In this document: piece after piece, positions 20,090 to 23,034 of the stretch
How the letters are laid out: every line of letters starts with the position of its first letter
Numbering within the stretch: position 1 is the stretch's first letter
Assembly (NCBI GenBank): GCA_000165425.1
Contig: CT868023.1
Span: 1-64,000 of the forward strand
Source: Paramecium tetraurelia
Lineage: Eukaryota
Direction: 5' to 3'
Length of the DNA stretch: 64,000 bases
Translations under genes and position numbers: made by a program
Notes under the pieces: model-generated
The model's database searches: none
Told to the model about the DNA's origin: nothing
Seen by the model: only the letters and a program-made list of their open reading frames with translations

Positions 20090-21118
20090 ATGCAAGCTTA
20101 ATCAATAGGAGAAGTATTTAGTTTAAATAATTTAGGATTGCATGGAACTGTTTGATGCAAATACTTATGGTGATGGTCAAGAAAGAAACTGTGGATTATG
20201 TTATAAGCCTCCAACTTATGAAGAAATCGAATAAGAAAGTAGAATAAACAATAAAAAATTGATTCCCAATGATAAAGAAAAATTCATTGAGCTTATACTA
20301 AAGGAACAAGTAATAAATAATATTAATATGATTAGTAAGTGAGATTGGATAAGAACGTTTAAGATTTGTATGGATAACTTAATTATTCAGGAGTAGTCGA
20401 GGAATTAATCCATGCCGAAATATTTAAACATTTTGGCTATGATGATTGCCCATTAAATCATAAATTGTACTATGCCTTGACTAGGAAATACATTAAAGAT
20501 CCTGAATTGAAGAAGTAAGTATTTTTTTGGAGAAATAATGTAATGCATGGATCCAAACTTGGATTGAATGAATAACCACCTGAAATCCAATTGTTGAATT
20601 TAGAATAGTAGAAGGTTGCTTTATAAGAATTAATGCTTAAAAGCCATAAGGAAAATAGATTGCTTGTTGCTTTTGCTGGCAGCATAACATGACCTCCTTA
20701 TCGTGAGGCCATGGCTGATTATATTGCATTTGCGTAGAAGTATAAGGAGATTTGCAAATGCATCATCGTCTACATAAAGGAAGCTCATTTCGTTGAAAGA
20801 GATTAGGAAGGGAAGTTTGTAGATGGATGGCCAATTGGCTTTTACGATTATGAATATCCATAACACAAAAGTCAGGAAGATAGATTAAAGATGGCTAAGA
20901 CGCTCAAGGAGGAGTACTCGATTCCTGATGAGTTTGAGATTTATTTGGATATATTCCCTTAAAATTAATTTGATGAGACATTTGGAATTTGGCCAGATAA
21001 CATGGTTGTTTTCAAGGAGCTTAAGTTTATCTGGAGGGGAATTGTAAACTTAGATGGATCAAGAGATAAATATCATTCTAAGTTATTGGAGGATCACTTA
21101 AAGTAACTTAAATATTGA
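20090..21118 (+). CDS. Iodothyronine deiodinase-like selenoprotein (UGA-Sec at 20690-20692)
   Basis: After two short introns the frame reads ...LLVAFAGSIT(TGA)PPYREAM...VYIKEAHF..DGWPIG..HKSQEDRLKMA..FGIWPD, matching the deiodinase motifs FGSCTUPPF, YIxEAH..DGW and HxxxEDR; the frame stays open for ~140 codons past the TGA. Confidence 0.9.
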
Positions 21119-21131
21119 GTTGATTAACATT

Positions 21132-21201
21132 AGTAATCATTCACATGACTTCTATTGGTAGAAATTGGAATATTAATAGAATGAAATATATGATGATTAT
21201 T
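21132..21201 (+). promoter_or_regulatory. Eukaryotic SECIS element in the 3' UTR
   Basis: Helix I AGTAATCAT/ATGATTATT; core ATGAC (21145-21149) / TGAA (21182-21185); 11-bp helix II TTCTATTGGTA/TATTAATAGAA; apical loop GAAATTGGAA with unpaired AAA. Confidence 0.88.
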
Positions 21202-21225
21202 TTACTTAATAATTCAATATGAATT

Positions 21226-23034
21226 TCAAACTGAAATGGATGCTACTTGGGATTTCAGATCTGAAATTTGGGAAGCAGCTTTGTTATTTTACATCACAAT
21301 TTCTTTGTTCACCTTTCTTAGTTCTCTAATTTCAAGTGCTAGTAATTTAATGTTTTTTCCATAACTGAATAACAGTTACTTTGTCTCTGTTAACTCTTAC
21401 TTTATCTTAGCCTTTTCAGATTGTTCATTTTCCGTCTCGATTTTATGAGCCTTGATACTAGCTTGCAATGTCTTAATCAAGTCTTACAAACCTTTAGTTT
21501 ACTCACTAAAATTATAGGAATGCTTACTTCAAACCCTTGATCTCATTGTTGTTATTCTGAATTCTCGACTATCTATCTTGGATCATTTGTTCAAGAATAG
21601 TTTATTTCTGAATTAATTGCCAATGTTATTCGACTAGGTAATATATTAAGGAAGATTGAGATCTACATTCAATGTTAATGTAACTTCCAAATACATATAG
21701 CGAAGCAAATATCCTTTGCATTGTTGCCAAATATAATCCAAAGAGACCTACATCTGCAGCAACAACAGTGCCTAAATTAAAGATCTTCTCTTAAACATCT
21801 GATTAACTTGTTTTTAATTTCTTTAATTGATTCTATCTTTCTTTTTAAAATGCTTCTCTTTCATTTGCATTTACAATCAAATTGGCCGTAAATTGACTCA
21901 AATTAAATGGATCTGATTTTAATAGATTAGCCGTCTGTTAGGAACGAGAAGCCATTGACTACACAAAGGTCTTTAGACCATCTGTGGAATCTGGATTTTC
22001 TATATGTTCTAGTCTTCCCAAGAATTATGTTCCTTTAACAAAATTGTTAGCCTCAACGATGATTGGATCCAACCATTCATTTGGATTCAAAAAGGCATCA
22101 AAATACTTAATGATTTGAGTCTTTACTACTTACTCAGGACAATCATTTGACAATTTCTTGAATAAATCAACTTGTTTTGTTAACAACTTCATTTATGATT
22201 GATATTAAATAGTTGAACATCTTATGACTTGTGGAATTACCAATTTGAATTAACACAATGCAAAATATATAGATTTTTTTGACAGACAGAGATTCACAAT
22301 GTCTTTAGAACTCAAAAATGAAATTAATTGGGTTTTAATCTTAGTTGCTATGATTAATTCGAAGGTGGAAAAGGGAAAATCAGATTTCTCATTGAGATTC
22401 AAAAAGTTTGATGTTTTTATTTTTTTAATGGCATTTGTCTCCTTTTACAATTTAACTAAATCTACTTGAGAATTCTTCAATTTATCAGATAATTGAAGTT
22501 CATTATTCTTTATACATATTATCTCTTATTCCTTTAGTGTTAACAACTCTTACTTTTATGCTAATTATTCTTTATACAGACAAGCCTACTTTTCGAACTC
22601 TTATGCTTATTGAGCGAGTTATTGATGCAATGCTTATGATTCATTAGTGAGCTAATCAAATAGAATGCCTATTATACTTCTTGAATTTATTTTTCATAGG
22701 CTGTCTCTAAACTCGTCACGAATTACTCATGATTGATTGTTTTATGCTTTAAATCTTCGTATGCTTTTTTTAATATATTAAATATCTAGTGCTCCTTCTA
22801 CAAGACTGAAGCGTATTTCTTTAACTTCTTTAAGTTATGATTTGCGTCGGAAATCACTTCAAGAATTTTATCTCGATTCCTTAGCAATGCCTGATACATC
22901 ATCTCTACCCTTTCATCTTTTGATTTCTGTTGATCCAACTCAAACAAAAATGGGTTCAAATCAGAATCATCAGACTCAACAAACGACTCGTCATCTTCAG
23001 GATATTCGATACTTTCAAACTAAAAATTACTCAT
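21226..23034 (-). CDS. Hypothetical coiled-coil protein
   Basis: MSNFQFESIEYPEDDESFVESDD... to ...SDLKSQVASISV*; heptad-rich. Confidence 0.7.

Follow-up and report, generated by a model that had tools for sequence, protein, structure and literature searches.

The window, by which we mean the whole 64-kb stretch of DNA analysed here, carries a deiodinase-like gene on the plus strand at 20090-21118. The gene starts with an ATG at 20090 and consists of 326 codons plus a stop, distributed over three exons (20090-20113, 20136-20309 and 20336-21118) that are separated by introns of 22 nt (intron 1, 20114-20135) and 26 nt (intron 2, 20310-20335). Both introns were either absent from RNA-derived contigs or marked by loose read ends. 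The coding sequence ends at a UGA at 21116-21118 (+) and faces a convergent gene, spliced according to the RNA data and with a 22-nt intron from 21506, whose stop codon lies at 21226-21228 on the minus strand and for which no convincing Pfam family was found. The gap between the two genes, 21119-21225, is 107 nt long and holds a hairpin at 21132-21201. Upstream of it, on its own strand, the 326 codons of the deiodinase-like gene include one internal in-frame TGA, located at a Sec/Cys site; translation with table 6 gives ...FAGSIT*PPYRE... around it. This UGA (20690-20692, plus strand) is codon 185, in the context GSIT-U-PPY, and is the predicted selenocysteine (Sec).

The first 184 residues of the protein are identical to GSPATT00032856001 / XP_001430402.1 of Paramecium tetraurelia, the public annotation of which ends at UGA 20690. 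No Pfam family was matched by this annotated 184-residue piece, which ends at the active site; exon 3 read through the TGA matched PF00837 at 57.5 bits, against a curated cut-off of 27. In alignments with mouse Dio2 and Dio3, the UGA of codon 185 falls on the Sec-to-Cys site. The predicted structure (pLDDT 93.7) belongs to the thioredoxin/peroxiredoxin-like fold class, and its best fold matches were mouse Dio2 and Dio3, ahead of peroxiredoxins. Most likely, the enzyme is soluble and acts as a Sec-dependent reductive dehalogenase or peroxidase-like reductase.

The hairpin is built from a 9-bp helix I with one G-U pair (AGTAATCAT, 21132-21140, and ATGATTATT, 21193-21201), a non-Watson-Crick core made up of ATGAC (AUGAC) at 21145-21149 on the 5' side and TGAA (UGAA) at 21182-21185 on the 3' side, a helix II in which 11/11 positions pair, two of them as G-U (TTCTATTGGTA, 21150-21160, and TATTAATAGAA, 21171-21181), and a 10-nt apical loop, GAAATTGGAA (21161-21170), where AAA at 21162-21164 follows after one G; all are on the plus strand. 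A sequence-only reading of the locus had already described helix I, the AUGAC..UGAA core, an 11-bp helix II with two G-U pairs and a loop with AAA, and each of these was recovered at the same positions. It had placed the start of the hairpin 14 nt past the deiodinase stop, in agreement with the 13-nt spacer that separates the stop TGA at 21116-21118 from helix I, which begins at the 14th base, and its gap of ~107 bp to a convergent gene ending at 21226 corresponds to the 107 nt found here.

Folding with ViennaRNA recovered both helices, with helix I present in the MFE as well as the centroid structure. The 10 nt of the apical loop were unpaired in both structures, leaving no room for an apical mini-stem, as expected for a type I rather than a type II element. 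The 70-nt fold had an energy of -14.3 kcal/mol (z -2.3; 4/200 shuffles as good), the core hairpin alone gave z -3.05 (1/200 shuffles as good), and a wider 116-nt stretch gave z -1.7 (11/200). A helix II of ~11 bp above the core is the length rule for SECIS elements. An 11-bp stem is also described in PMC7409322 and fits the length of helix II here. By analogy with the known SECIS core, AUGAC/UGAA would adopt kink-turn geometry. With its AUGA/GA core, ~11-bp helix II, loop adenines and a helix I below the internal loop, 21132-21201 is a real, textbook type I eukaryotic SECIS on the evidence of pattern, folding, shuffles and a covariance model, and the element itself is of a well-known kind.

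The modest folding z-scores (-1.7 to -3) are nevertheless what might be seen if the hairpin had arisen by chance in AT-rich DNA, or served as a 3'-end signal in common with the convergent gene, and were unrelated to the UGA. Rarity was assessed with a scanner that combines pattern and pairing (RUGAN, an 11-bp stem, AA 10-14 nt above the core, GA and a lower helix) and that, having been written with the element already known, measures rarity and not discovery. With no or one mismatch allowed in helix II, the hairpin was the scanner's sole match in the 64 kb, both strands included. Sixty block-wise dinucleotide shuffles of the window yielded 0 matches at the strict setting, which speaks against a chance fold, and 0.17 per window at one mismatch; the four matches that the real window gave with the loosest pattern speak for it. 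The minus strand had no SECIS-like match and folded only 7 bp of helix II, which does not favour a signal serving both genes.

A check by Rfam SECIS models had been proposed in the sequence-only reading. These models gave no match at 21132-21201, and SECIS_1 run on the genome gave none among the 120 of 1771 candidates that were scored. The lack of an Rfam match could be counted in favour of a chance fold, but the models also failed to detect any of the other SECIS candidates behind Sec-type genes of this genome (0/8), and their silence is uninformative for that reason. The missing Rfam match is a detection limit and not a defining biological feature of the SECIS. A covariance model was then built from seven SECIS candidates of SelT-, SelW- and TrxR-like genes, leaving out the deiodinase elements; longer pieces misaligned, and a shorter cut was therefore used for the alignment. 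In the window, this model placed the hairpin first of 33 matches, at 28.2 bits (E 0.021) compared to 20.3 bits for the next, a modest margin over background from a training set chosen by a scanner that rests on the same features. When 26 other loci were searched, the elements of the pseudogene and the paralog described below took the first two places among 22 matches, at 25.5 and 25.0 bits, followed by one at 22.5 bits. In helix II, 95.5% of the cells pair over all 10 elements, a figure that is partly circular because pairing was a selection criterion, and each of the 11 pairs varies on both sides. The type I features and the leave-out covariance model together uphold the eukaryotic SECIS architecture that had been recognised from the letters of the hairpin.

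Besides the window gene, the genome contains a paralog on contig C558 and a remnant on contig C21. The paralog (L002:897-2030, G000:C558, plus strand) is predicted to be a second intact deiodinase-like selenoprotein gene, and is likewise annotated as a 184-residue protein, GSPATT00019328001. It has the same introns as the window gene and retains the TGA, in GSYT-U-PPY. Its SECIS, 32 nt past the stop, shares the core and the AA, while the stem sequence is different and helix II is 10/11 paired; the loop is longer and able to form a short extra stem. After the TGA, 89/136 residues are identical between the window gene and the paralog, with 34/22/68 changes by codon position, compared to 73/118 residues and 41/23/51 changes before it. 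This pattern of substitution indicates that the sequence past the UGA is conserved as protein.

The remnant on C21 (L003:1323-1632, G000:C21, minus strand) is a syntenic pseudogene of the deiodinase gene, which has lost its start and Sec codon by deletion but retains ~200 nt of coding sequence, with frameshifts, and a well-formed SECIS. The C21 region is 74% identical to the window on both sides, and the similarity ends at window position 21226; the hairpin therefore belongs with the deiodinase gene and not with its convergent neighbour. Helix II of the C21 element is 11/11 paired and has three substitutions relative to the window, each one-sided and all still pairing, which is weak evidence because purine transitions opposite U keep pairing. 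The SECIS was kept at 59/69 positions compared to 147/198 for the coding remnant, which is not significantly better (p 0.067), and we therefore make no claim that the C21 SECIS still works. The loss on C21 may be species-specific. Its translation resembles the full-length P. primaurelia / P. pentaurelia records (P0002, P0010). The gap of the window is transcribed and probably common to two 3' ends, as a shared 3'-end signal would have it, but the hairpin stays with the deiodinase remnant on C21, and an equivalent of different sequence stands behind the C558 paralog. We thus consider a chance fold or common 3'-end signal very unlikely.

Transcription of the locus was followed in X24, a stranded oligo-dT run with 1355 reads placed. 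From 20144 onwards the coding region was covered at a depth of 29-110, equal before and after the UGA. Reads at the UGA showed no other letters, no gap and no intron. The depth fell to 6 in 21120-21180 and to 0 in 21181-21241, a bin that also includes the last codons of the convergent gene, and only the first half of the hairpin was reached; the drop is likely a loss of coverage at the 3' end. No poly(A) end was seen in the reads of the locus, and run X20 spans 20834-21088 only, short of the hairpin. Two intron-free contigs (X19, RNA, and X17, RNA by guess), both unstranded, run unbroken through the gap. The two contigs suggest overlapping or abutting 3' UTRs of the convergent genes across the SECIS in 21119-21225.

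The same data bear on a reading in which the gene stops at UGA 20690 after 184 residues, or is decaying, and the SECIS is either a relic or located past the poly(A) site. The public annotation does end at this UGA, the raw reads fade inside the hairpin, and on C21 a well-formed SECIS has survived the decay of its gene; PMC7409322 also describes GPx genes of ciliates that have a SECIS but lack Sec. However, the protein that would result from such a stop matches no Pfam family and breaks off at the active site, the frame past the UGA is open and appears conserved at the protein level, the mRNA depth is equal on its two sides, and two spliced, albeit unstranded, contigs cross the gap unbroken. 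A relic or a SECIS outside the mRNA is thus highly improbable.

The public Paramecium protein records (n=13, from five species) have neither Sec nor Cys at the site in any case (0/13). Ten end exactly at GSIT or GSYT, which would correspond to a UGA, since UGA is the only stop. Two (P0002 and P0010) span the full length but have no GSIT-x-PP stretch, which, from the protein records alone, we read as removed by a false intron, and one is a C-terminal fragment. A metagenome contig has TGA at the site in its DNA and ends before the stop and the 3' UTR; it is the one true metagenome relative, another match (L047) having been rejected as false. A wider homologue search returned 108 relatives; in 30 stored homologues with a readable motif, the site is occupied by C (14) or W (16). 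The W is most likely a UGA translated under another table by gene callers. Two of the distant homologues, P0061 and P0081, have ubiquitin-like domains (and a ZZ finger) before the deiodinase-like domain, and could be real fusions or joined gene calls. That the UGA is read by some other route (Trp or Cys suppression, or leaky termination), with the SECIS incidental, is extremely improbable: W occurs in 16/30 homologues as this would predict, but C occurs in the other 14, W is most simply explained by the wrong table, UGA is the working stop of the genome, and a tRNA-Sec is present.

The genome contains this tRNA-Sec, with anticodon UCA, as well as a SepSecS gene, and two of its contigs match the eEFSec domain. 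Of 30 L7Ae matches, seven loci were translated; none was identified as SBP2, and from their appearance we take all seven to be ribosomal or Snu13-type proteins. One selenophosphate synthetase (SPS) was found (L019, G000:C291:409136-410537, minus strand), in a Cys form (GCGCK) and with no SECIS match; Tetrahymena SPS2 is listed as a putative selenoprotein in PMC2612030.

We scanned 35 loci of selenoprotein families, some of them pieces of one gene and with the in-frame UGA judged on part of the exons; the resulting list, coming from family searches, is partial. A SECIS-like match followed all eight genes in which an in-frame UGA was visible at the Sec position (8/8), namely the C558 paralog, two SelT-like genes, one SelW-like gene and four TrxR genes, compared to one weak scanner match among the 26 remaining loci, with the pseudogene set aside. 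The SelT-like genes (CTS-U) and the SelW-like gene (CGG-U), so named from a reading of their motifs, are L021, L023 and L025 (G000 C690, C6 and C613), and each has a SECIS 25-46 nt past the stop. Matches to GPx (nine matches, six loci read), MsrA (four) and SelO (one) were rejected as Sec forms and had no convincing SECIS, one weak match lying inside an MsrA locus; L009-L012, L052-L055 and L081 from these families have Cys or no Sec, and L016 and L017, although GPx-like, have no catalytic Cys. Genome searches gave no match for Sep15/SelM or AhpC-TSA_2 and a single, spurious one for SelK.

The earlier suggestion that the SECIS independently supports the Sec reading is supported by the UGA and SECIS of the paralog, by conservation, by spliced transcription and by the presence of machinery genes. 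Very probably, the mRNA of a deiodinase-like selenoprotein has its SECIS in this hairpin, and the internal UGA of that mRNA is predicted from sequence to be read as Sec. In the known eukaryotic pathway, the SECIS core is the binding site of SBP2, which in turn recruits eEFSec together with Sec-tRNA (PMC4989117). By the same pathway, the GA/GA core in Paramecium would form a kink-turn bound by SBP2, which would bring eEFSec with Sec-tRNA to the ribosome at UGA 20690. Sec at position 185 in GSIT-U-PPY would yield a thioredoxin-fold enzyme of 326 residues instead of a fragment of 184. The terminal UGA would be too close to the core (26 nt) for recoding, and translation would end there.

With UGA as its sole stop codon, this organism must decode one UGA of every selenoprotein mRNA as Sec and terminate at another. 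In the five intact internal-Sec genes, the core lies 26, 32, 25, 31 and 46 nt past the stop (5/5 in 25-46), whereas in the four TrxR genes, in which Sec is penultimate, it lies 57-126 nt past the stop and 63-132 nt from the Sec codon. A rank test of internal-Sec versus TrxR distances gave p 0.01, but paralogs are not independent and, in so compact a genome, 3' gaps are short by default. The minimum UGA-to-SECIS distance is given as 51-111 nt in PMC3316567 and PMC3737529. UGA 20690, 452 nt from the core, is beyond this minimum, while the terminal UGA should terminate because its 26 nt fall below it. A SECIS placed 26 nt behind the only stop codon of the organism may thus keep the terminal UGA from being recoded. 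The UGA within the core (21146-21148) is also the next in-frame stop and was considered as a backup, but this is so in the window and the C558 paralog only (1/9 other elements) and is probably chance.

A simple distance rule is called into question by the TrxR genes, in which the Sec UGA and the stop UGA are only 6 nt apart, and by a figure legend in PMC4967479, where ciliate TrxR Sec codons are located shortly before the SECIS. Three TrxR genes, which end in GC-UGA-G-UGA, have a strong GC-rich hairpin that begins 6-9 nt after the Sec UGA, directly behind the stop (z -4.1 to -5.9; L031:1914-1943 (+), L032:1917-1946 (+) and L034:1385-1414 (-), on G000 C666, C14 and C24). These hairpins are separate from the SECIS, which is 112-126 nt further on, and their position matches that of the Sec redefinition elements of SelN and SelS (PMC3628699). 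The fourth TrxR gene (L038) has no such post-stop hairpin, and no SRE-like hairpin was found after the Sec UGA of the deiodinase-like gene in the window (z +1.0). Tentatively, and with the balance of probability still against it, Paramecium might tell Sec from stop in two position-based ways: in internal-Sec genes, the core would lie 25-46 nt behind the stop UGA, inside a no-recoding zone, whereas in penultimate-Sec TrxR (4/4) it would lie at 57-126 nt, with a GC-rich hairpin in 3/4 separating UGAs that are 6 nt apart; the same proposal includes an unannotated family of soluble deiodinase-like selenoenzymes.

All 13 public Paramecium records examined carry a truncated or misdrawn model of the gene, which is corrected here, and a ciliate is added to the protists with predicted deiodinase-like selenoenzymes. 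RNAi and transformation can both be used in Paramecium, and UGA is its only stop; a compact gene with a 107-nt gap behind it thus offers a convenient test of how the distance from UGA to SECIS decides between Sec and termination. Large selenoproteome resources include Selenoprofiles, Seblastian and SelenoDB. The literature passages found by keyword contain no Paramecium or ciliate deiodinase-like selenoprotein and no mention of this SECIS, and large selenoproteome surveys may list the gene.

Compared to vertebrate Dio1-3 (PDB 9H48, 4TR3), the predicted Paramecium protein has the same fold (TM 0.77 by target length), the same Sec position, the EAH motif and the later His of PQH(K/R)S. Identity is only 21-24%, however. 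The Cys that Dio3 carries two residues ahead of Sec corresponds to Ile in Paramecium, the later aligned Cys position has no Cys either, and no membrane-spanning stretch is obvious by eye. The deiodinase-like selenoprotein of Dictyostelium discoideum, as described in PMC2375036, is also a PF00837 protein with a 3' SECIS from a protist without known thyroid hormones. Its SECIS is of type II, with a long mini-stem and UGUA before the core, whereas that of Paramecium is of type I and without UGUA, and the long N-terminal part of the Paramecium protein is unlike the Dictyostelium one.

Another comparison is with Tetrahymena thermophila, also a ciliate in which UGA is both the only stop and the Sec codon and in which selenoprotein genes carry SECIS elements (PMC2612030, PMC7409322), of canonical form in PMC2612030. 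The six selenoprotein genes listed in the latter are GPx, TrxR and SPS2, with no deiodinase-like gene among them. Relative to the eukaryotic type I SECIS of PMC4989117, the Paramecium element has the same location in the 3' UTR, the same AUGA and GA core between two stems, the same adenines at the start of the apical loop and no apical mini-stem. It differs in being very AT-rich, in being missed by Rfam, in starting 13 nt past the stop (core 26 nt), and in following a stop codon that is itself necessarily UGA. Proximity to a terminal UGA is shared with the Lokiarchaeal SECIS, for which the authors of PMC4989117 propose that no recoding is possible; that element is archaeal and has a shorter stem, and other stop codons are usable there, whereas in Paramecium the codon next to the SECIS can only be UGA.
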